Origin: a virus
Lineage: Duplodnaviria > Heunggongvirae > Uroviricota > Caudoviricetes
Reading direction: 5' to 3' (one strand)
DNA length: 22,150 bases
Virus record (IMG/VR): IMGVR_UViG_2617270955_000009
The first letter of the stretch is position 1. Every line of letters starts with the position of its first letter. Both the position numbers and the translations under genes were made by a program. The notes under the pieces were generated by a model. It saw only the letters and a program-made list of their open reading frames with translations, was not told the DNA's origin and did no database searches. Shown in pieces: positions 1-22,150 of this stretch.

Positions 1-219
1 TCACATCCACATAATTTGCTGCCCTGACGGCAACGGGTGCGGCCTTACGGCGTGGACTTCTCCCGGCTTCACGATGTATCTCTGTACCGACTCATAGGTG
101 ATGAACGTGGCGCTGCAATTCACGTTCTGACACTGGTGATAACGCTCTTTTGTCGTGTCAGTGATATAGCGGCTTGTACGCGCATGTGCGGCATGCTGGC
201 ATAAAGGACAATGAAACAT
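1..219 (-). CDS. ogr: Ogr late-gene transcriptional activator (zinc-finger, 72 aa)
   Basis: ORF 1..294 (-) contains MFHCPLCQHAAHARTSRYITDTTKERYHQCQNVNCSATFITYESVQRYIVKPGEVHAVRPHPLPSGQQIMWM, recognised as P2 Ogr with a Cys4 zinc-binding arrangement (CPLC ... CQNVNC). Start placed at the internal Met that gives the 72-aa P2-length product; stop codon is at window positions 1-3. Confidence 0.88.
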   Translation of the reverse strand: MFHCPLCQHAAHARTSRYITDTTKERYHQCQNVNCSATFITYESVQRYIVKPGEVHAVRPHPLPSGQQIMWM

Positions 220-5412: not shown

Positions 5413-6603
5413 TTAATTGCTGTTAACCGAGGTGACCAGATTTGCCAGGTATTTATCGGTAATACGCTGGCGCAGGGTCAGGTTTTCAAGAGGAGGCACC
5501 GGGGTATAGTCGTAGTCGATATACAGTTTTCCGGCCTTGAGGGTTTCCGCATCGTTGGATTCTTCGCTGAACCAGCAGGTCGCATCCACGATATAGCCGT
5601 TTGTTTTCAGCTCACGGAATTTGGCATTGATACCGTCAACGATGTCGCGAATCAGCGTTGCGGTGATGGGCTTGTCCACCGCCCACATGTGCGCCTCAGC
5701 CATCGTGTCGGCCAGCACCTGCGCGGTGCGGGTGTAGTTTTCAAAGAGGAACAGCGGGTCATCAGAGCAGGTACGGTTACCCCAGAAGCGGAAACCGTCG
5801 CGGCGAATCAGCGTAGTGACGCCTGACTCGTTAAGCAGGTCAGCATCAGTGCCGGACTCCTGCAAATCCCAGAATACAGATGCGCTGATGCCGGTAACAC
5901 CGTTTACCCCGACGTTGGACAGCGTTTTATGCCAGCCCTGCTCCTGGTCGATTTTAGCGCGCAGACCCAGCGCACGGGCGGTGGCATACGCGGTGGCGGT
6001 GGTGCTGGTGACCGTATCCCATGCGAGGAAATCCGGCCAGATGACCATCAGCTCACGCTGGCTGAAATTCTGGCGGTAGGCTTTCACCTCGGAAATGGTT
6101 TTACAGCCCCATGCGCTGATATACCCGAAAGCGCGCAGCTTCTGACAGACAGATGCCAGTGCAACAGCCACCTCTTTGGTGTCCAGTCCCGGTACGCCGA
6201 GAATACGCGGTTTAACACCGGTTACCGACTCCGCCGCCAGCAGGGCTTTCAGTCCGGTGTACTGACCGTTTTCGTCGGTGGTGCCGATGATATTGGAAAC
6301 GGTCTGCGCAAGTTTCGTTTCTTCGTCGTCGCCGGTGCCGTCTTCAACACGCACGACAACGGTGACCGGTTTTGACTGGTCAGCGATGGCCTGCAACGAC
6401 GCCGCCAGCGTGCCTTTTTTACCAGCCTTTGCAATTGCGCTCTGCACATTGGTAATCAGCACCGGTTTATTGAGGGGGAAGGTTTCCGCATCCGCATCGC
6501 TGGCCGTGCAGACCATGCCGACAATGGCAGTGGATACGGTGGAAATGACGCGGGTGCCGTCGTTAATCTCCAGCACCTGCACGCCGTGATGATAGTCACT
6601 CAT
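5413..6603 (-). CDS. FI: Contractile tail sheath protein FI, 396 aa
   Basis: 396-aa ORF; length and synteny match P2 gpFI. GGAG Shine-Dalgarno sits about 10 nt upstream of the ATG on the minus strand. Confidence 0.92.
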   Translation of the reverse strand: MSDYHHGVQVLEINDGTRVISTVSTAIVGMVCTASDADAETFPLNKPVLITNVQSAIAKAGKKGTLAASLQAIADQSKPVTVVVRVEDGTGDDEETKLAQTVSNIIGTTDENGQYTGLKALLAAESVTGVKPRILGVPGLDTKEVAVALASVCQKLRAFGYISAWGCKTISEVKAYRQNFSQRELMVIWPDFLAWDTVTSTTATAYATARALGLRAKIDQEQGWHKTLSNVGVNGVTGISASVFWDLQESGTDADLLNESGVTTLIRRDGFRFWGNRTCSDDPLFLFENYTRTAQVLADTMAEAHMWAVDKPITATLIRDIVDGINAKFRELKTNGYIVDATCWFSEESNDAETLKAGKLYIDYDYTPVPPLENLTLRQRITDKYLANLVTSVNSN

Positions 6604-6704: not shown

Positions 6705-6729
6705 AAAGACGGGCAATCAGCCCGTCTTT
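6705..6729 (-). terminator. Rho-independent terminator hairpin (minus-strand oriented)
   Basis: AAAGACGGG-caatcag-CCCGTCTTT, a 9-bp stem with 7-nt loop, followed on the minus strand by the T-rich tract TCTTTATCTGTTGTTTC. Confidence 0.6.
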
Positions 6730-6777
6730 AAATCACAAATTTTGACAGTTTTTGATTTGCATTCGAGAATAACAGTT

Positions 6778-6800
6778 CGGGGGAGAAAAAACCTCCCCCG
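6778..6800 (-). terminator. GC-rich hairpin immediately 3' of the cargo operon (probable terminator)
   Basis: C-GGGGGAG-aaaaaac-CTCCCCC-G, an 8-bp G/C stem 15 nt after the TAA stop at 6815-6817; the downstream minus-strand tract (GAACTGTTATTCTC) is only moderately U-rich. Confidence 0.45.
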
Positions 6801-6814
6801 CCCACGTAACTTGC

Positions 6815-7864
6815 TTAACTACATGAATCAATGATGTTTTTCACAAGCTTATTTATTTCAGATTCATTAGTGCCAAATTCACCCGCTTTAAAATTAATAC
6901 CTCGCGCTGCAAGATTTCTTTTTATTTTACTTACTTCACTCAGCATAAAGTCATAATTTAACGTTTTTTCTTTAATGCCCTTTGAATATATTACAGGGAA
7001 GGCTTTCATTAATGCCGCATATCCTGTGAGTTTACTTAAATAATATTCCCTTGGTGTATTCCACTCAACTGGATAGACATTGCTAATAGCATTAAAATAA
7101 TTCAATATTATTTTTTGAATTACAGCGTCATTCTCTTCGATAAAATAATCGCGGAATATACACTGATTATTTGGCGTTAATGGCAGATTCATTTTTAACA
7201 TTCTTGCATCATCATCAGGTTTTTTTGAAATATGTTGGATAAGATATTTAATGAAAGTGCTTTGTGATAATGATGCATTATCTTGGTTTATTTCCTTTTT
7301 CCCAAGCATTTTTAGCTTTTTATAAAAAGGGGAATCAGGATTACTGTTTATTCCTCTCGCGATTTCGTGGCATGTTTTTTGTGGACTCCTGCGTTCTGCA
7401 AGCGAAAATAAATCATATACAATTGATGGATTTACACGAGTTTGTTTACTATTAATAATTGAGAAAACATAGGCTTTTTCTTCATCAGTAAGATCAAACA
7501 TTAAAACAACAGGTAGTTCAAAAAGTTTAGCATTAGAGGAATTTTTAATTCCCCATAATCTGTGTTGACCATCGATAACATCACCTATAACCACTTCAGA
7601 CTCAAAGTAAAAATAGGTATCATCCATTTTTAAATTGGATGAATCATCGACGGAAATTATGATCGGCGTTGGAAAAGTCGCATCCGGCTCACTAGTGTAC
7701 TTTGCGATTTCTGAAACTCTTGATGATGAAATATCCCTTTGCACACCAAATTCGAAATCTCTGCGACGATCAACTCTAACTATATCGAGCAAGTCAATGG
7801 CTCTTATTGATGTTAAATAGAAAGTACCGATTGGTTGATTAACTTCAATATATTTCAACTTCAT
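6815..7864 (-). CDS. DGQHR-domain protein (DndB-like, ParB/sulfiredoxin-fold), 349 aa; accessory cargo gene B
   Basis: Exact DGQHR motif at residues 98-102 (nt 7559-7573, VIDGQHRLWG), preceded by the family-typical N-terminal QPIGTFYLTSIRAIDLL element. AT-rich codon usage. GGAG Shine-Dalgarno 8-11 nt upstream. Start ATG overlaps the stop of the upstream membrane gene (ATGA at 7861-7864). Confidence 0.8.
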   Translation of the reverse strand: MKLKYIEVNQPIGTFYLTSIRAIDLLDIVRVDRRRDFEFGVQRDISSSRVSEIAKYTSEPDATFPTPIIISVDDSSNLKMDDTYFYFESEVVIGDVIDGQHRLWGIKNSSNAKLFELPVVLMFDLTDEEKAYVFSIINSKQTRVNPSIVYDLFSLAERRSPQKTCHEIARGINSNPDSPFYKKLKMLGKKEINQDNASLSQSTFIKYLIQHISKKPDDDARMLKMNLPLTPNNQCIFRDYFIEENDAVIQKIILNYFNAISNVYPVEWNTPREYYLSKLTGYAALMKAFPVIYSKGIKEKTLNYDFMLSEVSKIKRNLAARGINFKAGEFGTNESEINKLVKNIIDSCS

Positions 7865-8460
7865 ATCATAACTCCTTTACCATCATCAGTTACTTCATTG
7901 GTTGCCATTGTCTGATCTATAACTATTGCATCTTCTTTTTCTATATAACTTTCATCATTTATATCTGTATGTGCAGTAGCGTTAAGTTTTAATACGCCAA
8001 ATGTATAGCATACTAAGACTATAGAAATAACATAAATTATAGGTTGAGTTAAACCGAATGTTAAATCATTAGAATTTGGTAGGATTAAATCCTTTGATTG
8101 CGTAGCAGCGTATATTATACCTGATAATTGTAATAAAATAATCAATAATATTATTGATATGATTTTTATTGTTTTAAATTCAAGTTTTGAACTAAAAAAA
8201 GTTACAAACATAGGCCCAAGGGCAGAGGCTATTAATGCAATGGAAAATGTGTAAAAACTTCCTGACGAACCTTCTATGTAAATAGATTGATCTAGTGGTA
8301 TTGAATGTGAATAATATCTTATGATTATATTTGCAATAATCCCCATTTGCCCACAAACAACTGTAAAAACGATCCAAATAAAAAACTCTCTTTTGTTTTT
8401 TCTTATCGCATCGAATGGATAGGAAAGGGATTTCTTTAATATTTGCCAGTCTTTACTCAT
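7861..8460 (-). CDS. Small integral membrane protein, four predicted TM helices, acidic C-terminal tail (199 aa from ATG; 202 aa if the GTG at 8467-8469 is used); accessory cargo gene A
   Basis: Hydrophobic segments FFIWIVFTVVCGQMGIIANIII, FYTFSIALIASALGPMFVTFF, IKIISIILLIILLQLSGIIYAA and TQPIIYVISIVLVCYTFGVL; C-terminal DINDESYIEKEDAIVIDQTMATNEVTDDGKG. The ORF-track start at 8469 is a GTG; the first ATG is at 8458-8460 with AAGAG upstream. Confidence 0.7.
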   Translation of the reverse strand: MSKDWQILKKSLSYPFDAIRKNKREFFIWIVFTVVCGQMGIIANIIIRYYSHSIPLDQSIYIEGSSGSFYTFSIALIASALGPMFVTFFSSKLEFKTIKIISIILLIILLQLSGIIYAATQSKDLILPNSNDLTFGLTQPIIYVISIVLVCYTFGVLKLNATAHTDINDESYIEKEDAIVIDQTMATNEVTDDGKGVMI

Positions 8461-8646
8461 GTTATGCACTCTTTATTTAAACTTATCAACAATATGTAAC
8501 TATCAATTAATAACCGTTTACTCTTTTCAAATAATAAAATTATAATCATCAAAAAAATCGACATTATAATTAGACAACATTTTTAACACTAAGTGATACC
8601 TGACTCATGTCTCCAGACCCTAAAACCGCTTGCATAATTTAGAATG

Positions 8647-8675
8647 ATAATACTACCTTATAGTAGGCTTGTGAA
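8647..8675 (-). promoter_or_regulatory. Candidate sigma70-type promoter for the cargo operon (TTCACA-17 bp-TATTAT)
   Basis: Read from the minus strand of the AT-rich intergenic region; reasonable -35/-10 spacing but one of several possible matches in AT-rich DNA, with a long (about 180 nt) leader. Confidence 0.2.
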
Positions 8676-8864
8676 CTTATATAGCCTGAGTCAAGTAATT
8701 AATAAATCACTTATTTCGTTTTTTTTGCATTTGGTCGCTGTGATTTTTTCATAAACAAACTTACAATGATGTCAGCAATGTCTGCTCTTGGCACAGAGCG
8801 GACTGTCAGATTAGTTTTTACTCTGTGCCATAGATGTATAAACTCACATCAGAGCTTATACAAT

Positions 8865-9443
8865 TTATTGTGGCATTTCAGGCCATTCTATATCCGGAGC
8901 ATCTTCCGGCTGAATGCGATTCAGTAGCACACGGTATTTTTTCCAGTGTGTCAGGCTTAACTTTTCTTCCTCAGTTGCCATATCCAAATCGACAGCATCC
9001 TGCAGCGTGGCAATGATTTCACCTGCATATGCAATCTGCTCTTTCTTCTGAGACTCAGCCGCTCTGACAAGTGCATCACGCTCTGCATTCTCATCATTCA
9101 CCCACGCATTTCCGTTCCATTTCTGATAATCCCCCTCCGGGGAAATGGCTGTCACGTCTGGAGATAATGCGCCAAGTTCAGAAATATAAATGGCTGCTCC
9201 CGTTTTCGTTTCGTATACGGTCTTTCCGCGATGGTCTTCCATCAACTCCCATTTCATTTCATCTGCATTGAAAACGGCTGCATAACCAGCCGGTATATCA
9301 GGCGGCGCAATATCTGTACTGTTTGCAGGCAAACCTGTATACGGAGGAATATATGCATCACTTTCGCCAATAAATTCATTGGTTCCATCAAGTAAATTGA
9401 AAACGCGGATAGTTTGTGCTTCTGCACTCATTCTGAAAGCCAT
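8865..9443 (-). CDS. G: Tail fibre assembly protein (Tfa / gpG-like chaperone), 192 aa
   Basis: 192-aa ORF immediately 3' of tail fibre H with a Tfa-typical conserved C-terminus ([29 protein letters not shown]). Confidence 0.85.
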
Positions 9444-12061
9444 TATGCAAGCCTCACAATATAGTTAAATGCGATGTTTTTGACGGTGTTTTCGGTATTA
9501 CCTGTAGCATTAACGGTAATAGAGTGCCCGTGTGAGCCAATAGCAACCGTGTGTGAATGTGCACCAATACCAACCGTATGATTATGTGCGCCAATATCTA
9601 CCGTGTGGGCATGATTCCCGGCAGCTCCTGATGTGCCATTAAACGATGGGTTGTCAAAGCCTGTTTTACCGGTTTCACCATTAGTATTGGCATTCCCTCT
9701 GTAAATGGTATGTGTATGGTTACCAGTGGTATTAGTGGTTTTTGTTCCGTAGTTAAACGTACTGACTGTCTTCGTCCCGTAATCAAATGAACTGGTCGTT
9801 TTCGTCCCTAAATCCGTATTTGACGCACTGGCACTGTGAGTATGCGATTTAATCCCGTCCTGTTCCTGTGACAATACGGCACGCCCACTGGCGGGTTTGC
9901 CCTTGATTGTCCAGCCGCGCATATCTGGAATAACACCAGAAGGATAGACAATAGCCAGTTTCGGATATGCAGCCTTATCAAACGTCTGCCCCTGCATAAT
10001 TGCATAGCCTGCAGGTGGTGTATCTGATGGCCACGGCAGCGGAACACCAGGCGGAAACGCTTCAATATCTTTCGTCCCGTCAAAGGTTACGCCGTTAATT
10101 GTCCTTGCCGTTTTCAGCTTTGTTGCTGTAGCAGCATTGCCGGACAGTTCGCCTGAAAGACCGGCGCTGAAGGTTTGTTTCGCCGCCCATGTCTGGGCTT
10201 CGTCAATAATTGGCACACGTCTTGTGGTGATCGTGCGACTTCCCGGATTTCCTGAAATACGCACCATAAAAAAGCGGTAGTTCGCTTTACTTACAGTGCT
10301 GCGCCATACATGCATTGAGCGCCCCGCACCGGAATCATCACTCGGACCAACTGAGATGTTTATCAGGTTGCCATCAATGACGCCCCAGTCCATACCTTCG
10401 GGAATGTTGGTCATGTTATCAAGCCGAACGGTTATCAGACTGCCCGGCACAAAGTCGTAGGTCTGCCAGTCCAGGCTGGAGAGTTTTGCCACTGCACCGC
10501 CGATACCCAGATTCAGGGGAAGTGAATACGAGGTGTAGACTTCACGCCATTCGCTCCACGAGCTGCCGGTATAGACGCGCTCAAACGTGCGACCTTTAAG
10601 GGTTGCACCTGTTCCGGCAGTTGTATAACGCTGCCATACGTTAACACCATCAAAGCGCCTCAACACTTCCAGAATCCCGAGGACTGTCACGCCGTTTCCG
10701 TCCAGTATTGGACCGTTGGTCGCTTTACCTGTAACGCTGTAAATACCTGGTGAAGTCACCTCATTCAAATCCCCGTCGTAATAACGACTCTCTGACTGAT
10801 GACCGACTCTTAACCACGGTTCCCACTGTGGATTTGATGCATCCCAGCTTGCCGCAAGGCAGCGGACATACATATTTCCACGGCGAGTGGTATAACGTTG
10901 CGTTCTTCCATAATTCCCGCCTTCGAGGATCTCAAGCATCCCCTGAGCAAAGCCGCCTTCCTCTGGATAATTGCGTTCATATGAAGCTATAGCCGAGCTA
11001 CTGTTACGCCATAAACCAAGATGCTCGGCGGCTCCAAGCGTATTCAGGTCTATAGTCGTACTCAAAGGGCGGGTAGCAGATTGAGTGTGACGCCATACGC
11101 CCCACGGACCATCAGTGCCATTCCACTTATTGGCGAGTTTACGCATGTAAACATTGCCGTCTCTCGTGGTAAAGCGTTGCGTACCTGCAAAATTGCCGGC
11201 AGCAAAAACCTCAAGCACACCGACAGCATTATCTTCCGGGAAATTTTTCTCCAGTGTTGAGTTAGTTGAGGTAGCTTTAGACCAGATCCCCAGATAAGCC
11301 TTAACGGGACCAAATGTATTCAGGTCGGCATCAACCGGCATTTCGCCATTGTTTTTCATAAACGTCAGACTGGTAACGCCAACATTGTCCAGAAAAGCTG
11401 ATTTATCCTGGATATCTGCACCATTCTGATTTTTCGCCAGACGTGAATTTGCGTTGTCATTTGCTGCCTTGACCGCTTTTGGCGTTGCCGCCAATGACTC
11501 ACTGGTGCTGTTTGTTGCACTGCTTAACTGAGTAAAACCTTTTTCTGTCAGCGTGGCGTCAGGATGGCGGCGGGACTGCTCATGTTCTGCGATTTTGTCA
11601 TCGACGTAATCCTGCGTCGCCATCACTGTGCTGGCATCAATACTCAGCTCAACGGACGCCACGTTACTGACAATAATAACCATGCGGCAGGTCTGCGCAC
11701 GCCCGGAGCCTTCAGCGAGTTCAGGCTTATAGCTTTCTGCCATGTTGGCGACCGCAATCAGTGTTCCGGCATCGTCATACAGACCAAGCTCACGCATCCA
11801 GAAGCCGCCCACTTCGGGCGGTACAACCAGTTCAGCCACGATATAGTTTTTATTCTTATTATCCACGCTGACTTTATTCAGAGCGTGACGCCAGACCTCA
11901 TGCACCAGTTTCGTCTGACCGGCATCCGGCACCGGCAATTTGCCATTACCGTCACCCACGGCCATTGCAGACAGGTTTACTTTTTTCCCGCCGGGGACAG
12001 TGGCGGCTGCCAGCTTCGCGGCTCCGGCAGTAGTGATAACGGTTTTAAATTTCGTGCTCAT
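9443..12061 (-). CDS. H: Tail fibre protein H, 872 aa (longer than the 669 aa of P2)
   Basis: N-terminus ([21 protein letters not shown]...) is P2 gpH-like; the central part has three ~70-aa internal repeats; the C-terminus has His-x-His repeats ([36 protein letters not shown]). Confidence 0.88.
9515..9630. repeat. Tandem ~27-bp repeats within the 3' end of H, encoding the histidine-rich (HxH) repeat
   Basis: Plus-strand units resembling caaccgtgtgtgaatgtgcaccaatac / caaccgtatgattatgtgcgccaatat / ctaccgtgtgggcatgattcccggc; the period of 27 nt equals the 9-aa protein repeat. Confidence 0.6.
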
Positions 12062-12071
12062 TGTTTCTCAC

Positions 12072-12602
12072 TTATCCGGGATAAACAGTAATAACATCAC
12101 CATCACAGACCACACCGCCTGTATACAGATAGCCGGGAATGTCCTGGATAATGTTCAGGCCGATAAGGTGGCGACTTGCGGGTTTGGCATCGGCAATCAG
12201 CCGTTCCATTTCCAGATACATTTCCTCTGTGATACCGCTTTCCAGCACACCGATATCAAGACGAAAGGTTCCGGCCGGGTCGTTTGTCTCCCACCATTCC
12301 TTTACGTTAATGAGATAGCCGAGCGGCTCCACCACACGCCGGATTGCGCCGACAGTGCCTTTATGACAGTGGATGAAATAGGCATCGCGGATAACGGCGC
12401 GTTTTGTCGCTTCCGGCCACTTTTCATCCCACCTGTCGACCGAAAACGCCCACGCCAGCCACGGCAGCAGATTTGCCGGGCAGGTGTCCGGGTTCCACAG
12501 CTCACGAATACTGACCGGCGTTTTTTCAATTTCCGCACAGGCTTTTGCGGCGGCGACCTCAAGCGGTGATGAGCCGGTCGGCAGCAGGCGCGAATCACTC
12601 AT
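12072..12602 (-). CDS. I: Baseplate/tail protein I, 176 aa
   Basis: 176-aa ORF between J and H; length and synteny match P2 gpI. Confidence 0.85.
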   Translation of the reverse strand: MSDSRLLPTGSSPLEVAAAKACAEIEKTPVSIRELWNPDTCPANLLPWLAWAFSVDRWDEKWPEATKRAVIRDAYFIHCHKGTVGAIRRVVEPLGYLINVKEWWETNDPAGTFRLDIGVLESGITEEMYLEMERLIADAKPASRHLIGLNIIQDIPGYLYTGGVVCDGDVITVYPG

Positions 12603-13503
12603 CCGAGCCTCCGGTCACGACGCGGTATTCGGTACAGAAAGACGCCTGCGTATTGTTGAGCACGATGTCGGCCAGCGGTGCAGCCAGTTCGACACGCTGC
12701 ACGCCTTCCACATGCAAAGCGGCATAAATGGCAGACAGACGGATGTCGCGCCCCAGCCGGTGCTGTGCCGTGATGTACGCTTCCAGCTTTTTCACGGCGG
12801 CGGCGCGGATGGGTTCGCTTTCGGGACCAGGGTAAAGGTAAAGCGTGGCGTTTATCTGGTATTCAACGATGGCGGCAGACTGCACGGTCACGCGGTCGGC
12901 CACCGGCCTGACGTCCTCGCCATTAAGGGCGTTACGCACCACCGCCAGCAGGTCTTCGGATGCGACACCGTTATTTTCACGTGACAGCACAGAGATGGTG
13001 ACGCAGGCCGGAGAAGGACTGGTGACAGAGATATCCGCGACACGCCCGTCGGCACTTCGACCATGATACTGATAGGCCCCCACCGACCCGGCGACGCTTA
13101 AACCTTCAAACGCCTGCTGAATACGCAGACGATAATCGGTGTCAGATTCCATCACGGCCGGTGTCGGCGGGATAGTCGAATCATCTGCCGGGGTGATAAT
13201 CAGGCGCGTGGTGTTGTAATTGGCACCAATCACATCAAGGTCATTACCGGCAGCACAGGCCAGCATTACCGCCCGTGCGGCCTCATTCACACGCTGACGC
13301 CAGATAAGCTCACGATAAGCATTTTCCTCCAGCAGTTTGACGAGAGGCTCAGATTCCAGCGTCAGGGTACGGGCGACCGCCTCCTGCTGGTCTTCCGGGT
13401 AAAGGGAAATCAGTGTCGCCTTGCGTTCGGCAAGAATGGTTTCAAAGTCCAGCTCCTCGACCACATCCGGTGCGGGTAGCTGGTTCAGGTCGATAATCGG
13501 CAT
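12595..13503 (-). CDS. J: Baseplate assembly protein J, 302 aa
   Basis: 302-aa ORF; length and synteny match P2 gpJ; overlaps the I start by 8 nt. Confidence 0.88.
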   Translation of the reverse strand: MPIIDLNQLPAPDVVEELDFETILAERKATLISLYPEDQQEAVARTLTLESEPLVKLLEENAYRELIWRQRVNEAARAVMLACAAGNDLDVIGANYNTTRLIITPADDSTIPPTPAVMESDTDYRLRIQQAFEGLSVAGSVGAYQYHGRSADGRVADISVTSPSPACVTISVLSRENNGVASEDLLAVVRNALNGEDVRPVADRVTVQSAAIVEYQINATLYLYPGPESEPIRAAAVKKLEAYITAQHRLGRDIRLSAIYAALHVEGVQRVELAAPLADIVLNNTQASFCTEYRVVTGGSDE

Positions 13504-13507
13504 GGTT

Positions 13508-13855
13508 TCAACTCACAGGGATGGTTAACGAAAGTGGCTGGCCGGTGTCGTTGTGCTGGCCGGTTAACGTGACCGTCATTCGCCCGTCAAAACTGCGCTC
13601 AGTGGTGACGGATGACAGGGTGACGCGGGGTTCCCATTTCAGCACCGCCATGTAACAGGCGACCTTAATCTGCAACTCAAGCGCCGGGGTCTGCGGCTGG
13701 TCAATCATTGATGCCAGCAACGAGCCGTAATCACGACGCATCACCCGTGAGCCGACCGGTGTGCGCAGGATATCGCCGATACTCTGGCTGATATGCTCAA
13801 GGTCAGTGACCGTCAGGCCATCACTGCGATTCATTCCGAGATAACGCGCAGTCAT
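13508..13855 (-). CDS. W: Baseplate protein W, 115 aa
   Basis: 115-aa ORF between V and J; matches P2 gpW size; ATGA overlap with V. Confidence 0.85.
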   Translation of the reverse strand: MTARYLGMNRSDGLTVTDLEHISQSIGDILRTPVGSRVMRRDYGSLLASMIDQPQTPALELQIKVACYMAVLKWEPRVTLSSVTTERSFDGRMTVTLTGQHNDTGQPLSLTIPVS

Positions 13856-14487
13856 AGAGGTCCCCCTGTTGTGCCGCCACTGTCGCCGGGGTGTTTATGG
13901 GTATGCAGTACCTTACCGTTTGATGAGAGTTCACCGCCGGTGTGTTCAATGTTGCCGCGCATCGTCCCGCCCTTCTGTACTTCCAGCGTGCCGGTAATCA
14001 GCCTGTTGGTGCAGACCACCTCCGGCGTGTCCAGGGTGACACGGGTTGACGCTTTCACCGTGACCACCGGTACCGTGGCAGTAACAGAATCAGAAGCCGT
14101 CACGCTGGCCGTTTTAATTCCGCTTACCGTGAGTGCACTGGTTTCGGGTTCATACTCAATCACCGCCCCGTCAGAGAAACGGATATGCAGGGCATCAGCC
14201 GACGCAGACGGCGCAGGGTTATCGCCGGAATAAATCCCCGGCAGAACGAACGCCGTGTCGAGTTCACCGCCCACGGCCAGAATCAGCACCTGTTCCCCCA
14301 CGGAAGGTGCCCACCATGTGCGCGAACGACCGGCGCGCTGGGTCAGCCACTGCAGCCAGTCGGTGCACATGCCGCCGGTCTGCACACGGCAGCGACCGGC
14401 GTTAAGGTCGGTTTCGACGACAAGGCCGGTGCGGATCATGTTGCGCAGTGCGCGCGCGAGTTCCTGAATATTTGCGAGAGTGTTCAT
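13852..14487 (-). CDS. V: Baseplate spike/hub protein V, 211 aa
   Basis: 211-aa ORF; length and synteny match P2 gpV. Confidence 0.88.
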   Translation of the reverse strand: MNTLANIQELARALRNMIRTGLVVETDLNAGRCRVQTGGMCTDWLQWLTQRAGRSRTWWAPSVGEQVLILAVGGELDTAFVLPGIYSGDNPAPSASADALHIRFSDGAVIEYEPETSALTVSGIKTASVTASDSVTATVPVVTVKASTRVTLDTPEVVCTNRLITGTLEVQKGGTMRGNIEHTGGELSSNGKVLHTHKHPGDSGGTTGGPL

Positions 14488-14553
14488 AACGGGAAGGATG
14501 CCGCCGGGTCATACCGGCGGCAATGTGACGATGAGGTGTCGGGAATGGCACAA
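14488..14553 (-). promoter_or_regulatory. Expected Ogr-dependent late promoter for the V-W-J-I-H-G operon (P_V equivalent)
   Basis: 66-bp S-V intergenic gap. Minus strand reads TTGTGCCATTCCCGACACC ... TATGAC about 25 nt before the V ATG. A TGT...ACA dyad is present but with 10 nt rather than 12 nt spacing, so the assignment is tentative. Confidence 0.3.
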
Positions 14554-15006
14554 CTAACGGTCGAGGTGCGCCAGGATAATCTCTTCAATCATCTGCACAT
14601 CCTCACCGGTAAAGCCGAGCAGAGGACGCGCCGGATAATCAATTTTCTTACCGTCTTTCCGGGTTTCTTCCGACAGACCGAACTGATGCACACTGGCGAT
14701 TTTCGGCGACTTCCCGCCGTAAAATTCCATTGATGCCTGCTCCGGGCTGGCGCGGATATGCAAAAAACGACTGGTGATAAGTTTCGCAAACATTTTTCGC
14801 TTAACGCGACCGGTCTTTTTTCTGGCGCTCTGCTGCTGGCGTGGCGCATAGGGTGTGCCGTCCGGGGCTTTCTGTGTCATCACCCGACGCTGCTGACTCT
14901 GCCGCAGGCGTTTCGCCAGTTCGGCACTCAGTCGCCGACGCCCTGACGGTGACAGCGACTCAATAAGTCCGGTCAGCCGGTCTTCAAAACGCTTAAACTC
15001 ATTCAT
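14554..15006 (-). CDS. S: Tail completion protein S, 150 aa
   Basis: 150-aa ORF; length and synteny match P2 gpS; overlaps the R stop by 8 nt. Confidence 0.85.
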   Translation of the reverse strand: MNEFKRFEDRLTGLIESLSPSGRRRLSAELAKRLRQSQQRRVMTQKAPDGTPYAPRQQQSARKKTGRVKRKMFAKLITSRFLHIRASPEQASMEFYGGKSPKIASVHQFGLSEETRKDGKKIDYPARPLLGFTGEDVQMIEEIILAHLDR

Positions 15007-15466
15007 CCCACTTGCTCACCAGTTCGCCATTGATATACAGCTCCATCGGGCGGGTAACCGGCTCCGGCGGCGGAGGTTCCGGGATATTCTTCACATGCAG
15101 CGCGCCGTCCACCTCACTGACCAGCGTGCGCTCGGTCAGCATCAGGCTGATGCTGATATCAAAGCTGCTGTCATTGTTGATGTCTGCATAAAACGTGAAG
15201 CCCTTTTTCTGGCCTGCGTCGGTGGTCATGATGTCGGGCTGATTTTCCCGCAGCCACGCCAGCACCGGCACGATGAGCAGGTCAAAATCACCGGTAAAGT
15301 CGGTCACAATGACATTGAGCGTGTAACGCTTTTCGAATGACAACGACGCCGCCAGTGTGGAGGCAATACTCCCGTTATCCACGAATATCCGCAGCATCTC
15401 GGGACTGGTTTTCAGCACCGTGACGGCATCAGTCAGCGCCCTGCGCAGGCTGTCGGGTTTGAGCAT
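14999..15466 (-). CDS. R: Tail completion protein R, 155 aa
   Basis: 155-aa ORF; length and synteny match P2 gpR. Confidence 0.85.
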   Translation of the reverse strand: MLKPDSLRRALTDAVTVLKTSPEMLRIFVDNGSIASTLAASLSFEKRYTLNVIVTDFTGDFDLLIVPVLAWLRENQPDIMTTDAGQKKGFTFYADINNDSSFDISISLMLTERTLVSEVDGALHVKNIPEPPPPEPVTRPMELYINGELVSKWDE

Positions 15467-15719
15467 CGTTTTCGTCCTGACAGTGTTTAATCATTTTTAC
15501 CTGGCTGGCACAGCGTGCCAGCGCGTTCTCAAGCTGCCGGATATCGGCACTTAAATCACCGTTCGTCTCCGGGTCACTGCCCGGCATCGGGCAAAGGCTC
15601 ACTTTCGGGCAGGCGTTGTGGACAATCACTGGCGTCGGTGCAGGCCGGGCGCTGGTGCAACCGGCGCACAGCATCAGGCAGGCCAGCGCCGTACCAGCGG
15701 CGAAAATCTTCGTTTTCAT
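15429..15719 (-). CDS. lysC: LysC, outer-membrane lipoprotein spanin (Rz1-like, o-spanin), 96 aa
   Basis: Signal peptide with lipobox (LMLCAGC), Pro-rich mature region; lies out of frame across the 3' end of lysB and extends into the 5' end of R, the classic overlapped-spanin arrangement. Confidence 0.8.
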   Translation of the reverse strand: MKTKIFAAGTALACLMLCAGCTSARPAPTPVIVHNACPKVSLCPMPGSDPETNGDLSADIRQLENALARCASQVKMIKHCQDENDAQTRQPAQGAD

Positions 15720-15999
15720 TCAGTAACCTCGTGATGGTTTTCTCGCGCTGTGCTTCACGCTTCGCGGCGTTCTCCAGCTCCTGACGCAGTGCCACCTGCG
15801 CCAGCTCGTTTTTGTCTGCTCTGGTGAGGGCAACATGAAGCTGATTTTTCAGCATGGTGATGGTCGTTTGCTGCCCGTTGGCGACGTTGTTCGCCCTGTC
15901 CAGCGAGGCGCGCAGGCTGGCGTTTTCATGCTTCGCCAGAAACAGCCCCGCCACCGCCAGCGATAACAACACGACCAGCACAATCATCAGCTTTGACAT
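15574..15999 (-). CDS. lysB: LysB, inner-membrane spanin (Rz-like, i-spanin), 141 aa
   Basis: N-terminal TM segment (LMIVLVVLLSLAVAGLFLA) followed by a coiled-coil periplasmic domain; matches P2 LysB size. Confidence 0.82.
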   Translation of the reverse strand: MSKLMIVLVVLLSLAVAGLFLAKHENASLRASLDRANNVANGQQTTITMLKNQLHVALTRADKNELAQVALRQELENAAKREAQREKTITRLLNENEDFRRWYGAGLPDAVRRLHQRPACTDASDCPQRLPESEPLPDAGQ

Positions 16000-16412
16000 A
16001 ATTCCCGCCCCTCAAGACGCTGACGACAGGCTTTACGTATCAGCCGGAAAAACAGCGACGCCACAAGATAAATCAGCGCGGTAAAAATCCACCCGGCAGC
16101 GACCAGCGAGATAAACGTCGCCACCATCACCACCAGACCCACCGCCCGTCTGCACCACGTCACCGGCTGCAAAAACAGCGACGTGACAATCTTCACGGCC
16201 AGCGATTCCGGCGGCAGCTCCCGCCCGTAGCGTTCCAGTACATACTCAGTGGCATACACGCCGATACCACCGGCAACCACACAGATAACCGTCTCCAGAA
16301 TCGCCCAGGCGGCGACAAAATTGACGGCCACGCTCTGCGGGTAAATCAGGGACAATGCCAGCATCAGCGCCAGCGACACGTTCAGCATCAGTGAAAGGGA
16401 TAATTTCTTCAT
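15987..16412 (-). CDS. lysA: LysA, membrane protein affecting lysis timing (antiholin-like), 141 aa
   Basis: Multi-TM 141-aa ORF between K and lysB; matches P2 LysA size and position. Confidence 0.8.
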   Translation of the reverse strand: MKKLSLSLMLNVSLALMLALSLIYPQSVAVNFVAAWAILETVICVVAGGIGVYATEYVLERYGRELPPESLAVKIVTSLFLQPVTWCRRAVGLVVMVATFISLVAAGWIFTALIYLVASLFFRLIRKACRQRLEGRELCQS

Positions 16413-16426
16413 GGTGTTTACTCCGT

Positions 16427-16924
16427 TTAAGCCGGTACGCCGCCGGCGGTACGCCAGACGGTGACCAGTTTTTCCAGTGAATGCTCACGCTGACCGTAAC
16501 CGGCACCCGGCAGGGACGCCCAGATATTGCGACAGCGTGAAATGGCGCGCTCAATGCGTCCCGCCCGGATGTCATCCAGCGCACCGCGTTCGCGGATCAA
16601 CTGAATGGCGAGTCTGTCCTGTGACAACGGACTGAAATCAGGCAGGGCAAGCTGTTTGCGGTAGTGCGGCCAGAACAGGTAAAGCTGCTGATAGCGACCG
16701 GAGGCCGTGGATTTTTCACCGCGACGGTTAAACACCTTCGCAGGTCGGCCATGCGCGAACGGGTGGTCACTGTAGTCGGTGAAAATTTCCGGCTTCCCGT
16801 CCAGTCCGGTGACTATCACGTCATAGCCCCGGTTTTTCGTCAGCGGATGGTTCGCCGTCCCTTCGGACACGGCCAGCATGTCGAGAAAGGCGGCGATATT
16901 CTGATGCGTGTTAATTACCGGCAT
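16427..16924 (-). CDS. K: Endolysin K (lysozyme-family), 165 aa
   Basis: 165-aa ORF downstream of holin Y; matches P2 gpK size and position. Confidence 0.88.
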   Translation of the reverse strand: MPVINTHQNIAAFLDMLAVSEGTANHPLTKNRGYDVIVTGLDGKPEIFTDYSDHPFAHGRPAKVFNRRGEKSTASGRYQQLYLFWPHYRKQLALPDFSPLSQDRLAIQLIRERGALDDIRAGRIERAISRCRNIWASLPGAGYGQREHSLEKLVTVWRTAGGVPA

Positions 16925-17205
16925 TACGGTTTCCCCCTGCCCTTAAAACGGCGCTGAATGGCAATCTCAATCACCTGATAACCGGCGATACCCAGCATGG
17001 AGCCGATGCCGCACACCGCAGGCAGTGACAGGTCAGGAAACTGCACCAGAACAACACCGGCAACCATCGAGACAAAACCACCGAGCAACATGCGCCCGAT
17101 AAACAGACGCGGGGTGATGGGTTCACCACCGGCAAGCACCTTGCCGACAACAATCAGCACCCCAATCATGAAAAGCGACAGGACGCTTTTTTCTTCTGCT
17201 GTCAT
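16924..17205 (-). CDS. Y: Holin Y, 93 aa
   Basis: 93-aa ORF with hydrophobic TM segments and a charged C-terminus (RRFKGRGKP); position before K. Confidence 0.85.
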   Translation of the reverse strand: MTAEEKSVLSLFMIGVLIVVGKVLAGGEPITPRLFIGRMLLGGFVSMVAGVVLVQFPDLSLPAVCGIGSMLGIAGYQVIEIAIQRRFKGRGKP

Positions 17206-17208
17206 GCG

Positions 17209-17412
17209 TTACTCCCACAGATTGACAGTTTCAGCCACGGGCGCGGTCTGAACGTCGGGCAGTTCGACGGCGGTGCCGTGCGGCAGCACCGCCCCCAGTT
17301 CAGCCAGTCCCGGATTTGCGGCGAGCACGGCCTCGACCACGCCCTCAGTGCGCCCGTAATACCGGACACAAATGGCGTCGAGCGTGTCGCCCTGTAGCGC
17401 AAAGGTCTTCAT
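17209..17412 (-). CDS. X: Tail protein X (LysM-like), 67 aa
   Basis: ORF 17209..17481 contains MKTFALQGDTLDAICVRYYG... Start set at the internal Met, which gives the 67-aa P2 gpX and an ATGA overlap with the stop of L. Confidence 0.8.
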   Translation of the reverse strand: MKTFALQGDTLDAICVRYYGRTEGVVEAVLAANPGLAELGAVLPHGTAVELPDVQTAPVAETVNLWE

Positions 17413-17921
17413 CAGATTTGACTCACGATGCAGCGCGGCTTGTCCTGGATGCGCGCCACTGCCCAGCGCATATCCCGCCACAGCTCATCAATGGTGCTGT
17501 CTATGCTGTCGGCCTTTTTGTCGCCTTTCGCACTGGCATCCACGCCGCGATAACGCTCATAAAGCGACGCGGTCGCCATCGCACACACGGCGCGCTCGTA
17601 GTAAAAAACTTTGATGCTTTCACCGTCGATATCGTCCGCCGGGACGTCAGCCAGACGCGAAAAACCGGCAGCAATTTTCTGTTCGCGGTACTCGTACAGC
17701 TCCGCATTCGTCTCCGCCATGCCTGACTTGATGGCCTCACGCAGACGGGCGGGGGCGACGGTCTGCTCAAGGCGCATACGTTCCCGGACGCGCTTCGGGT
17801 CGATATCGGGAAAAAAGAACGTGTTTTTAATCACCGGCTCGTCGCCTGCCGGTTGCGGGATGACCGCCGTACCCTCACCGGACACGGGAGCCTCCTTTCG
17901 CGGAATAATCAGCGTCATCAT
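17412..17921 (-). CDS. L: Head completion/stabilisation protein L, 169 aa
   Basis: ORF 17412..17981 trimmed to the MMTLIIPRKEAPVSG start, which is preceded by a GAGG Shine-Dalgarno; this gives the 169-aa P2 gpL length. Confidence 0.82.
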   Translation of the reverse strand: MMTLIIPRKEAPVSGEGTAVIPQPAGDEPVIKNTFFFPDIDPKRVRERMRLEQTVAPARLREAIKSGMAETNAELYEYREQKIAAGFSRLADVPADDIDGESIKVFYYERAVCAMATASLYERYRGVDASAKGDKKADSIDSTIDELWRDMRWAVARIQDKPRCIVSQI

Positions 17922-18020
17922 GACTACCTCAGAAAAGTCGGGCGGTGGACGCCGGTGCAGTGTCAGGTGATTCACCCTCACTGACCGGCGTGCCGCCCTG
18001 GCGCGGGGCGCATTCGGTTG

Positions 18021-18764
18021 TTAACTGGCTTTCTTTTTCGGGCGTCCACGTTTTGCCGGTGTCGCACTCCGGGTCTTACGCGGGGCGCGGGTGGCCGCTT
18101 TTGGCTGCGGCTCCGGCTTCGGTTTCAGTTCCCGCTCCAGTCGTTCAATCTCTTTTTTGACGCCTGCCTGACAGTCGAGCTGTGTCGCACGTTGCAGGTG
18201 AGCCAGCGCACCGGCGGCATCACCACCGTCACGCAGAAACAGACCGGTAATTTTGTGCAGCTTTGCGCGCACTTCATCAGGCATGTCAGCCGTGGCGGTC
18301 AGTTCAAGGGTCTCCGTCAGCAGGCGGGTATCCACAGACTCACCGGCAGCGTGAGCGCGCATGGCCGCAAGCGCCACCTCCTCGGTGAACATGTACGGTG
18401 GGGTACGGCGGTGTTTACCCGGCATGGTCAGACCGTACTTCAGGGCATAACGGGCAATCTCCAGCGCACCGGCAATATCGCCGGTATCCAGACGCCACAG
18501 CATGACCGTCATCAGAATGTCATCCTGTGCACCTTTGCCCTGCTCCAGCACGCCGTTCACCCACGGCAACCAGAACGGCAGCAGTTCGCGTTTTTTCGCG
18601 GCCTTCAGCTCTTTTGAATAAATCGCTTTCAGTGTGCGCTGGTCTGCGGCGAGCTTAACCAGCATCTGCTCATAGACAGTTGCATGTCGCAGCGGGGCGG
18701 CTTCCCGCTGCGCGGTCATCGCTGCCGAGACCCGCATCATGTGGCGCTGTGCGGGACTCGTCAT
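18021..18764 (-). CDS. M: Terminase small (endonuclease) subunit M, 247 aa
   Basis: 247-aa ORF with a basic C-terminal tail (KRGRPKKKAS); matches P2 gpM size and position after N. Confidence 0.88.
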   Translation of the reverse strand: MTSPAQRHMMRVSAAMTAQREAAPLRHATVYEQMLVKLAADQRTLKAIYSKELKAAKKRELLPFWLPWVNGVLEQGKGAQDDILMTVMLWRLDTGDIAGALEIARYALKYGLTMPGKHRRTPPYMFTEEVALAAMRAHAAGESVDTRLLTETLELTATADMPDEVRAKLHKITGLFLRDGGDAAGALAHLQRATQLDCQAGVKKEIERLERELKPKPEPQPKAATRAPRKTRSATPAKRGRPKKKAS

Positions 18765-18767
18765 CGG

Positions 18768-19784
18768 TTACGCTCCCGGCTCTGCGGTCGCTTTAGCCAG
18801 TGTGGAGAAATCACCGACCTTAATTTTTTCCACCAGACAACCGGCGGCGTAGTCTTCCACCACGTAATCAATGTTCATTGACTCGTAGTTCTCCACGCGG
18901 TCGAGTTTCGGGTTTTCCTCAATCACGCGGCGATGGCTGTCATCCATGTAGTAGATGGACAGGTTTTCCAGCTTTGTGATGAGCATCGCATCCGCCGGGA
19001 AGTACGGGACGCGTACCGCCGGCAGGTTACCGATGCGTTTCTGGCTGATGATGACGTCAGCGGCCAGCATTTCGCTGTTGTCCTGCTCCTTGTTGACGAT
19101 GGGAAAATACTTGTCCGCCAGTAGCTGACGTCCCACAATCACCACAAGGTCAGGGTCTTCCTGATACCACGGCTCAATCAGGTTGTTGGTCGCATCCATC
19201 ACCAGTGCGTCAAGGCTGGCATAATCACCGCCCTTACCCACGCGGATAACCTCAGAGATGGTGTGCCCTTCCTCGTCAGTGACCTTGCTCATCACGCGCG
19301 CCGGTGCTTCATTGCGGTATTTCTGCAGCCAGCCGACCGCCACATCCTGTAGCATCGGATTACTGCTGCGGTCAGAGGTTTCGGCACGCCTCACGCCGTT
19401 AAAACCGGCCATGATTAAATCAAGGGACTGGCGTTTGATAATGGCGTTACGGATACGGAGCTGGAAATCCTGATAACGCGCCCACAGGTCAAGCGTTTTG
19501 TAGCGGATATAAAAATCGAAGTTAATCTGGTCGCATTCGTACTTGTTTGACGCCAGCTTCGAGAAGTCCTTCGGCTGACGCTCGGTGCCACCGGCGGTGT
19601 CGCTGGTGCTGGCGATGGAGCCGGTGACACCAATACCAATTTTTTCCCCTTTCATTTCGCTGACCGGCACAATGTTGATGCGGGTCAGAAAGTCAGAGGA
19701 CTCCTGCATGGTGTTCATCAGGGTCTGGGTGACCGACGGTTCAACGGTGAATTTTTTCGACACATCACCGGTGCGTATTTTCAT
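18768..19784 (-). pseudogene. N: Major capsid protein gene N, 5'-truncated by IS insertion (338 codons retained of about 357)
   Basis: ORF is P2 gpN-like from GDVSKKFTVEPSVTQTLMNTMQESSDF onward. The in-frame upstream sequence hits a stop within IS-type repeat sequence (GAGTGATCTCC), and the ATG at 19782-19784 is fortuitous at the junction. Confidence 0.8.
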
Positions 19785-19842
19785 GAAAGGAGATCACTCA
19801 ATAACTTCCATCGAGATCGGGTAATAACATTTGAACAGATCG

Positions 19843-19909
19843 CTGAATAACATCGATGGAGATCACTTTTGACTCATTTTGTTATTCAGTGATCTCCATC
19901 AATGTTATT
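19843..19909. repeat. Imperfect inverted repeat in the IS left terminus
   Basis: CTGAATAACATCGATGGAGATCACT (19843-19867) versus AGTGATCTCCATCAATGTTATT (19888-19909), 1 mismatch in 22 bp; related GGAGATCACTCAATAAC copy at 19789-19805. Confidence 0.7.
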
Positions 19910-19964
19910 GGAACTTCACAGGTGTGTTGATCTGTATCTTTTGCCATTCCGGTAAAGGATACCT

Positions 19965-21506
19965 ATGCCAACAGTTCCAATTTCTATGAGAAAACTTAAA
20001 GAAATTCTTAGGCTTAAATACGGTGTTGGACTCAGCCATCGACAAATTGGTCGTAGTCTTGCAATCTCCCCTTCCGTTGTATCCAGATATGCTAATCGGG
20101 CGGCTCAACTTGGCATAAAGCAGTGGCCCTTACCTACAGGATGGGATGATACAAAACTAAAACATGCGTTCCTTCAGACCCAGGTTAAGATGAAGAAGCA
20201 CTCTCTGCCTGACTGGGCTACAGTACACCGGGAACTGCGTAATAAATGCGTGACGCTGCAGCTACTCTGGGAAGAATACTGTGAGCGTAATCCAGGCGGT
20301 TTTTACAGCTATAACCATTACTGCCGGATGTACCGTGAATGGCTCAAAACCACTTCACCATCAATGCGTCAGGTACATAAAGCTGGCGAAAAACTTTTCG
20401 TTGATTACTGTGGACCTACCGTTGGCGTTACCGACCCTGAGACCGGAGAAATAAGAACTGCTCAGGTCATCGTAGCTGTTCTCGGGGCATCAAGTTACAC
20501 ATGGGCAGAGGCCACCTGGTCTCAGCAGCTTGAAGACTGGGTGATGAGTCATGTTCGCTGCTTCCAGTGGTTGGGTGGCGTTCCTGAACTTGTTGTTCCG
20601 GACAATCTGAAAAGCGCCACATCCAGGGCATGTAAGTATGATCCTGACGTTAACCCTACCTACCAGCAGATGCTTGAGCATTATAATGTCGCAGTTTTGC
20701 CTGCGCGGCCACGTAAACCGAAAGATAAAGCCAAAGCTGAAGTTGGCGTTCAGGTTGTTGAACGCTGGATCATGGCCCGAATCAGGCATGAGATCTTCTA
20801 CAGCCTTGCATCGCTTAATCAGCGCATTCGGGAGTTGCTGGAAAGACTGAATAACAAAATAATGCAGAAGTTGGGTTATTCACGTGCAGAACTCTTCATC
20901 CAGCTTGATAAACCCGCACTGAAGCCTCTTCCTGAAGCCAGTTACAGTTACACCCTGGTGAAGAAAGTCAGAGTTCATGCCGATTACCACGTGGAAATCG
21001 ACAAACATTACTACTCGGTTCCATGTTCGCTGTTAGGCCAGCAACTGGAAGCATGGATCTCCGGAGAACTGGTAAGACTCTTCAATCAGGGGCAGGAGGT
21101 TGCTGTGCACCCGCGCAAGCGTACTTATGGCTACAGTACCCGCAACGAGCACATGCCTGAAGCTCATCGACAGCATGCCACCTGGACGCCAGAGCGTCTT
21201 CTGGAATGGGCGGGGCACATAGGCAGTGAAACTCATAGTTATGTGCTTCATATACTGAACTCTCGTCCACATCCGGAACAAAGCTATCGCTTCTGCCTTG
21301 GACTCCTGAACCTTCATAAAAAATACAGTAAAGCCAGACTTAATGCAGCATGTGCAAGAGCTCTGAAAACAAAGGTATGGCGTCTGTCAGGTATTAAATC
21401 GATCCTGGAAAAAGGTCTGGATAAACAACCTGTTCAGGATCCAAAACCAGATCTGTTATCCACGATGGAACACGAAAACGTACGCGGCAGTGAGTATTAC
21501 CACTGA
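19965..21506 (+). CDS. istA: IS21-family transposase IstA, 513 aa
   Basis: 513-aa ORF with an N-terminal helix-turn-helix region (LSHRQIGRSLAISPSVVSRY) and a central integrase-like region; followed 12 nt later by an IstB-type gene. Confidence 0.85.
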   Translation: MPTVPISMRKLKEILRLKYGVGLSHRQIGRSLAISPSVVSRYANRAAQLGIKQWPLPTGWDDTKLKHAFLQTQVKMKKHSLPDWATVHRELRNKCVTLQLLWEEYCERNPGGFYSYNHYCRMYREWLKTTSPSMRQVHKAGEKLFVDYCGPTVGVTDPETGEIRTAQVIVAVLGASSYTWAEATWSQQLEDWVMSHVRCFQWLGGVPELVVPDNLKSATSRACKYDPDVNPTYQQMLEHYNVAVLPARPRKPKDKAKAEVGVQVVERWIMARIRHEIFYSLASLNQRIRELLERLNNKIMQKLGYSRAELFIQLDKPALKPLPEASYSYTLVKKVRVHADYHVEIDKHYYSVPCSLLGQQLEAWISGELVRLFNQGQEVAVHPRKRTYGYSTRNEHMPEAHRQHATWTPERLLEWAGHIGSETHSYVLHILNSRPHPEQSYRFCLGLLNLHKKYSKARLNAACARALKTKVWRLSGIKSILEKGLDKQPVQDPKPDLLSTMEHENVRGSEYYH

Positions 21507-21517
21507 TACGGGATCCA

Positions 21518-22150
21518 ATGATGAATCATCTTTACGAACAACTGACCGCACTTAAACTCACCGGCTTCCGTGATGCGCTTAAAAAGCAACTTGCTCAACC
21601 GGGCACATACCAGGAGCTGGGCTTCGAAGAACGCCTGTCATTACTGACAGCAGAAGAACTAACCTGCCGTGAAAACAGGAAGGCAGAGCGTCTGATCAAA
21701 CATGCACGGTTCAGACTTAATGCTGAGTTATCAAAGCTGGATTATCGTAACAATAGAGGGCTGGACAGGGCCCTCATCCGTTCACTCAGTCAGGGAAACT
21801 GGTTAACCCTGAAACAAAATATTTTACTGACCGGGGCCACCGGCAGCGGTAAAACGTTCCTGGCATGTGCACTTGGTCATAATGCCTGCCGACAGGGATA
21901 CAAGGTCTACTATTATCGCCTTAAAGCGCTGATGGAACAGTGCTATCAGGGGCATGCTGATGGAAGATACAGCAAACTTTTGACCAGGCTGAATAATAGC
22001 GATCTGCTGCTTCTGGATGACTGGGGGCTGGAACCTCTCTCATCAGAACAGCGTAGCGACCTGCTGGAAATAGTGGATCTGATGTACCAACGAGGCTCAA
22101 TCATCGTAGTGAGCCAGTTGCCGGTGGAAAACTGGTACAAAATGATCGGA
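21518..22150 (+). CDS. istB: IS21-family ATP-binding helper protein IstB (3'-partial, runs off window)
   Basis: My own translation from ATG 21518: MMNHLYEQLTALKLTGF... with Walker A GATGSGKT and Walker B LLLLDDWG; no stop before the window end. Confidence 0.8.
   Translation, partial: MMNHLYEQLTALKLTGFRDALKKQLAQPGTYQELGFEERLSLLTAEELTCRENRKAERLIKHARFRLNAELSKLDYRNNRGLDRALIRSLSQGNWLTLKQNILLTGATGSGKTFLACALGHNACRQGYKVYYYRLKALMEQCYQGHADGRYSKLLTRLNNSDLLLLDDWGLEPLSSEQRSDLLEIVDLMYQRGSIIVVSQLPVENWYKMIG

Follow-up and report, generated by a model that had tools for sequence, protein, structure and literature searches.

The absence of orf30 from most relatives of P2, together with the existence of three accessory-gene slots, is textbook knowledge for the P2 group. 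The three moron regions of P2-like phages are TO, Z and orf30, and gain and loss of cargo slot by slot is the accepted view of these phages (PMC3091744, PMC6823313). In P2 the 786-bp orf30 is inserted between genes S and V, and it is absent from Wphi and L-413C (PMC2771037). The P2 reference (NC_001895) places S at 8915-9367 and V at 10308-10943, with 940 bp between them. This interval holds orf30 (9439-10224, 261 aa, on the opposite strand), which is annotated as 'nonessential', and it is also annotated with the O-operon terminator (9397-9433) and the activator site of the late promoter pV (10239-10266). An extra ORF between S and V of P2, which the first-pass annotation of the DNA studied here had placed there, is therefore present in the reference record. 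The consensus of P2-type late promoters is TGT-N12-ACA (PMC3931495).

The window, the whole stretch of 22,150 nucleotides analysed here (IMG/VR record IMGVR_UViG_2617270955_000009), covers the late-gene half of a P2-like prophage of E. coli, whose late genes are encoded on the minus strand. The gene order runs from ogr (1-219) through D, U, T, E/E' and FII to FI (5413-6603), followed by a cargo region; beyond the cargo lie G (8865-9443), H, I, J, W, V (13852-14487) and S (14554-15006), and beyond S come R, lysC/B/A, K, Y, X, L, M, a truncated N and an IS element. The late-gene activator gene ogr (1-219, minus strand) has a 72-aa product, for which RefSeq uses the name OgrK in a near-identical prophage; comparison of the translations found the Ogr proteins of the window and of P2 to be identical. 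Gene S (tail completion/virion morphogenesis; minus strand) encodes 150 aa in the ORF list and ends with a TAG stop codon at 14556-14554, and its product matches phrog_26 (E = 9.5e-58), annotated in PHROGs as tail completion/Neck1. Gene V (baseplate spike/assembly protein; minus strand) encodes 211 aa, as judged from the ORF list and PHROGs; its ATG lies at 14487-14485, and the V ORF has no start further upstream. With V starting at 14487 and S stopping at 14554, the S-V intergenic gap (14488-14553, minus strand) is 66 bp, as first reported. It has a GC content of 61%, and we read it as the late promoter pV and an empty accessory-gene slot.

Alignment of the window with P2 by blastn, the check that had been proposed for this junction, delimited the gap closely. 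Window positions 14552-19771 correspond to P2 9369-4150 (97.4% identity, the S-to-N block) and window positions 11456-14487 to P2 13339-10308 (91.8%), so that homology breaks at 14552/9369, two nucleotides past the S stop codon, and resumes at 14487/10308, the A of the V ATG. Neither an orf30 homologue nor any other ORF was found in the gap (ORF list; blastn against P2 9370-10307), in line with the claim that orf30 is absent here and that a promoter-sized gap alone separates the two genes. Over the 66 nt before V, window and P2 are identical at 19/66 positions, which is approximately chance level. GC content is 33% in the P2 pV module and 35% in the P2 intergenic region/orf30 cassette, whereas the window gap reaches 61%, similar to the 55-60% of S and V on either side. 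Because the P2 pV is AT-rich like orf30, while the window gap has the GC content of its neighbours, we take the P2 promoter to have come in with the AT-rich cassette, and the window pV looks native. As judged from these alignments, window and P2 differ by the replacement of everything between S and V, pV included, rather than by the simple gain or loss of a single ORF. P2 has the alternative allele, an AT-rich cassette with a terminator, orf30 and its own unrelated, equally spaced pV.

To determine the frequency of the two alleles, matches of a 186-bp S-gap-V probe with 80% coverage or more were counted as tight junctions, and the P2 orf30 cassette was counted separately. Tight junctions were found in 53 phage records and the P2 orf30 cassette in 21, while among 5426 complete E. 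coli genomes the tight junction was present in 1024 and the orf30 cassette in 460. It follows from these counts that P2, the reference phage, has the minority allele at S-V, and that the 'absent' orf30 is the common state and no peculiarity of this prophage. The S-V observation is correct yet ordinary, being published already and describing the commonest arrangement. It carries little weight in itself; its use lies in annotation, where the V start codon is fixed, the slot is marked empty and P2 is shown as the minority allele.

Among themselves, the orf30 cassettes share 90-100% identity. Distant homologues of orf30 (21-39% identity) occupy the same slot in the same orientation in Enterobacter, Buttiauxella and another enterobacterial prophage, indicating that the orf30 family is an old occupant of the slot and not specific to P2; on this sequence similarity, orf30 belongs to a conserved family rather than being an orphan. 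Read by eye, the P2 orf30 product has hydrophobic, membrane-like stretches at both ends. Pfam and PADLOC scans of P2 orf30 and of ORF16 of R18C returned zero matches.

In gene orientation the gap reads TTGTGCCATTCCCGACACCTCATCGTCACATTGCCGCCGGTATGACCCGGCGGCATCCTTCCCGTT, followed by the V ATG. At its S-proximal end lies a putative Ogr (activator) site (14535-14554, minus strand) with the sequence GTTGTG-CCATTCCCGAC-ACC, with its opening G doubling as the final base of the S stop codon. The site has the form TGT-N12-ACC and matches the consensus at 5/6 positions, the same score as P2 pF and pO (TGT-N12-CCA), and its GTTGTG half-site is identical to the left half-sites of these two promoters. The right half-site is ACC, not ACA, and an exact dyad is also found, at 14537-14552, with a spacing of N10, not N12. 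The TGT...ACA-type dyad noted in the first-pass annotation is therefore present as TGT-N10-ACA, while at the canonical spacing the window reads TGT-N12-ACC. As a bare pattern TGT-N10-ACA is not above chance (2 occurrences in the window versus 5.65 expected), and the combination GTTGT-N26-TTG is likewise not significant in the window (1 versus 0.98 expected). Since the dyad as such occurs at chance level, its meaning derives from its position and its conservation in relatives.

Downstream of this site, a putative -35 element TTGCCG (14518-14523, minus strand; 4/6 matches to TTGACA, assigned by sigma-70 geometry) is separated by 17 bp from a putative -10 element CATCCT (14495-14500, minus strand), and P2 pV has CAATCT at the same position as the latter. 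The predicted core TTGCCG-N17-CATCCT, with 7/12 matches, would be a weak sigma-70 promoter. A generic sigma-70 scan called no promoter in the gap, an outcome that is expected for an activator-dependent promoter but does not in itself speak for one. The V ATG lies ~56 nt downstream of the centre of the putative TGT-N12-ACC site. Counted from the first T of TTGT, the transcription starts annotated in P2 are 65 nt away at pO and pP, 66-68 nt at pF and 66 nt at pV, where the GenBank/RefSeq annotation puts the start on the first base of V (10308). The same count from the window TTGT to the V ATG is 66 nt, as in P2 pV, so that the site would have the position of about -55 typical of P2-type late promoters if transcription starts at the ATG. 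The transcription start of the window pV is predicted to fall on the A of the V ATG or on the nucleotide preceding it (14487-14488, minus strand).

From a collection with one genome per bacterial species, 80 loci encoding V relatives were gathered, nearly all of them from Enterobacterales. We compared 81 V-upstream modules, 77 of them from these loci and one each from the window, P2, R18C and a Klebsiella phage. TTGT was located 65-66 nt upstream of the V ATG in 76/81 modules. Among 33 distinct aligned sequences (A1), GTTGT, the TTG of the -35 element and the CA...T of the -10 element (A2, T6) were invariant, with the two elements 17 bp apart. A Shine-Dalgarno-like 4-mer occurred in only 9/62 distinct V-upstream sequences, well away from the start codon in every case, and purines made up 22% of the last 12 nt. 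From the fixed distance between site and ATG, together with the absence of a Shine-Dalgarno sequence, we infer that pV transcripts start at the V ATG, and the V mRNA is probably leaderless. A literature search for leaderless transcripts together with P2 and Ogr returned nothing relevant. The fixed 65-66-nt spacing across genera, together with the hairpin in the promoter (see below), would refine the delimitation of P2 late operons.

One of these sequences bears on gene annotation. In the Klebsiella phage ST147-VIM1phi7.1 (NC_049451; L004, 1439-2182), the RefSeq start of V lies 34 codons above the conserved MNTL... start at 1541. The annotated V CDS thereby crosses the conserved pV module, which is probably a start-codon misannotation. 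In Kosakonia and relatives (L012-L014, L018-L020, L022 and L024-L026; 2404-2500), R and not S lies directly upstream of V, with a gap of 77-94 nt, and no S homologue was found within 2.5 kb upstream of V. These loci carry a stem followed by a T-run, CGGACA-GCCT-TGTCCG-TTTTT, and an exact TGT-N12-ACA site, the right half of which is overlapped by the stem and T-run.

The slot was surveyed for cargo in L005-L084, using the ~2.5 kb that precede V in each locus. Among the 71 loci that could be classified, 34 were tight (S or R stop to V start 53-94 nt, the S-V gaps being mostly 66 or 68 nt) and 37 were cargo-bearing (112-2165 nt). Any cargo preceded the promoter module. From the 34 loci in which the gap exceeded 700 nt came 47 cargo ORFs, which fell into 35 unrelated clusters. 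A slot with conserved S (or R) on one side and V on the other, and with content that varies among relatives, is what characterizes the orf30 region, and this is the arrangement found. The families represented include RelA_SpoT (PADLOC candidate PDC-S33), HEPN_Apea, KAP/STAND-like NTPase, DUF4062, an ion-channel domain, GmrSD_N/NsnA-like, Mrr_cat and a fimbrial protein; many other cargo proteins gave no family matches. S-V cargo in other Enterobacterales is thus diverse and partly defence-like. Recent papers on defence hotspots focus on the old/tin and Z/fun loci.

The Z/fun slot of the window does contain cargo, as had been noted (6718-8864, minus strand); it has a GC content of 32%, is co-oriented with the late genes and has no P2 homology by blastn. 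While P2 carries fun(Z) at this slot, the window carries a DndB/DGQHR-like gene and a 202-aa ORF. The DGQHR/DndB-like protein (6815-7864, minus strand; 349 aa) matches DndB in Pfam (5.4e-11), DpdB in PADLOC (1.2e-16) and a ParB-like PHROG, and its RefSeq name is 'DGQHR domain-containing protein'. The 202-aa ORF (7861-8469, minus strand) overlaps the 349-aa gene by 4 nt, and Pfam, PHROG and PADLOC searches with it gave no match. This two-gene cassette was found in no sequenced phage record (at most 9% coverage) and may be a defence or DNA-modification-sensing module. The S-V cargo of one surveyed locus, L081, has a similar size pattern (349 + 201 aa, against 349 + 202 aa in the window), and the idea that the two pairs are the same was dropped, as blastp similarity was absent; the L081 protein is GmrSD_N/NsnA-like. 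The prophage thus differs from P2 in moron content at more than one site, namely the orf30 slot and the Z/fun slot, and the first-pass view of independent cargo gain and loss at defined slots agrees with the accepted picture (PMC3091744, PMC6823313).

Two further regions of the window depart from P2. G and the 3' part of H (8865-11455), which encode the tail fibre and its assembly protein, have no P2 match at the blastn level, and the block from 5' H to V is only 91.8% identical to P2, compared with 96.6-97.4% for the rest. As judged from the alignment, the divergence of G/H indicates a mosaic structure in which the host-range module was exchanged. At the other end, P2 homology in the N remnant (18768-19771) stops at 19771, equivalent to P2 4150 and 70 nt into the major capsid gene N. 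It is followed by an IS21-family element (19772-22150; RefSeq name ISEc12 istA in near-identical prophages) with a 513-aa ORF at 19965-21506. With its capsid gene disrupted, the prophage is probably defective.

Taken together, the S-V gap is very probably an empty orf30 slot, in which the 66 bp would form a complete minimal Ogr-dependent pV and nothing else. The coordinates, the lack of orf30, the points at which homology breaks, the conserved and evenly spaced motifs and the allele frequencies are direct observations, while Ogr binding, the transcription start, leaderless translation and any function of the spacer hairpin are inferred. The S stop codon TAG runs directly into the putative activator half-site GTTGTG, and Ogr (1-219) would be expected to activate the predicted pV late in infection. 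The weak sigma-70 core (TTGCCG, 17 bp, CATCCT) would come next, and transcription would begin on the A of the V ATG or one nucleotide ahead of it, producing a leaderless V-W-J-I-H-G operon mRNA.

The tight junction might instead be a secondary loss, with orf30 deleted from a P2-type ancestor and the gap left as a deletion scar. Such an origin would suit the recent shared ancestry implied by the ~97% identity of P2 and the prophage on either side of the slot, as well as the frequent turnover of cargo at S-V, with 35 unrelated clusters and 37 cargo-bearing loci in the survey. However, none of the 66 bp is homologous to the 940 bp of P2, the two promoter modules agreeing at 19/66 positions, and a simple deletion of orf30 was rejected on this absence of residual homology. 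The GC content of the gap is also that of the flanking genes, while P2 pV is AT-rich like orf30. Moreover, the same promoter type is found in many other genera of Enterobacterales, with or without cargo (for example in Pectobacterium, Brenneria and Enterobacter, and also in a Klebsiella phage), and the tight allele outnumbers the orf30 allele by ~2:1, making a deletion scar very unlikely. A still more improbable case, which we consider scarcely tenable, is that V has no promoter of its own and is co-transcribed with S from pO, the motifs being coincidental. S and V are indeed co-oriented and 66 bp apart, neither a canonical terminator nor a sigma-70 promoter was called in the gap, and the dyad pattern by itself is at chance level. 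Against this, no Shine-Dalgarno sequence precedes V and its translation is not coupled to that of S, such that a read-through transcript would translate V poorly. The GTTGT, TTG and CA...T elements do not vary and keep a constant spacing to the ATG in many genera, which is difficult to account for if there is no promoter, and P2 has a mapped activator-dependent pV with the same geometry.

Alternatively, the functional core of the gap could be a perfect 9-bp GC-rich inverted repeat, TGCCGCCGG-N6-CCGGCGGCA (14499-14522, minus strand), that spans -35 to -12 of pV. Nested in the pV spacer, it might serve the upstream O operon (O through S) as a hairpin that resembles a terminator or stabilises the 3' end. 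The predicted hairpin has a 6-nt loop and a stability of ~ -19.5 kcal/mol, and the 101-nt region around it has a z-score of -2.4 relative to shuffles. Across 33 relatives the stem is kept, with 88.6% of cells paired, while the loop sequence varies and the inner stem pairs show double changes (GC 16, CG 5, AU 1; CG 15, UG 14, UA 2); the covariation score was reached in 0/500 shuffles, a control that ignores phylogeny. Some of this stem conservation is due to the promoter, since the outer arm bases share positions with the -35 element and reach the -10 element. The repeat lies upstream of the predicted pV start and would thus be transcribed only from upstream. In P2, where an O-operon terminator is annotated separately beside S, pV has no hairpin. 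Nesting within pV could be explained by the tight junction leaving no other room. At tight junctions, 31/34 have a structure of -9.5 kcal/mol or lower in the 55 nt before the V ATG, and these structures are stabler than those at cargo-bearing loci (Mann-Whitney p = 0.0014, again ignoring phylogeny), although modules of both slot states fold ~4 kcal/mol better than their own shuffles. In two other promoter types, among them the Kosakonia type with a stem and T-run at the equivalent place, a different hairpin is found close by.

Of the two features of an intrinsic terminator, a GC-rich stem-loop is present, whereas a U-rich tract 3' of the stem is not: the tail after the stem, UCCUUCCCGUU, has no U-tract, the tails of relatives are 49% C and 42% U, and a terminator scan made no call in the gap. 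If the repeat formed an RNA hairpin, G-U pairs would be expected to be commoner on the sense strand; wobble pairs show no strand asymmetry (20 sense versus 19 antisense), and this argument was dropped. An Rfam search with the inverted repeat gave no family matches. We therefore regard a hairpin serving the O operon as possible, if somewhat doubtful. A broader proposal goes further and is rather unlikely as a whole: that the 66-nt pV is a self-contained cassette with an activator site overlapping the S stop, a leaderless start and a nested terminator/stabiliser hairpin, and that the S-V slot is an under-explored third cargo/defence hotspot at which cassettes are exchanged together with part of pV.

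Returning to the reading of the gap as an empty slot with a minimal pV, comparison with known phages places the window close to several of them. Wphi, L-413C, fiAA91-ss, pro483 and most sequenced Peduovirus have the same 66-bp junction (96-99.5% identity over the 186-bp probe). From junctions of the Wphi/L-413C type the window differs by point changes only, the best listed match being 99.5% identical with no 100% copy among the matches listed. R18C has the same slot boundaries, retains the proximal 37 nt of the window-type promoter and shows the same 66-nt spacing, and its hairpin is that of the window with one compensatory C-G to T-A change. It differs in having a 246-aa ORF between S and pV and, next to this cargo, a different half of the activator site (see also PMC6823313). 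As R18C keeps only part of pV, recombination joints can fall inside the promoter.

P2 pV has the geometry of the window promoter, with TTGT 66 nt before V and a -10 element of the form CA..CT, but in an unrelated AT-rich sequence and without the hairpin that the window carries in its spacer. P2 pF has a 25-26-nt leader with GGAG before FI, whereas the start predicted for the window pV coincides with the ATG. The Ogr/delta-dependent promoters pF, pO and pP of P2 lack a GC-rich inverted repeat in the spacer, unlike the window; their spacing to the transcription start would be that of its predicted pV if the latter starts at the V ATG.
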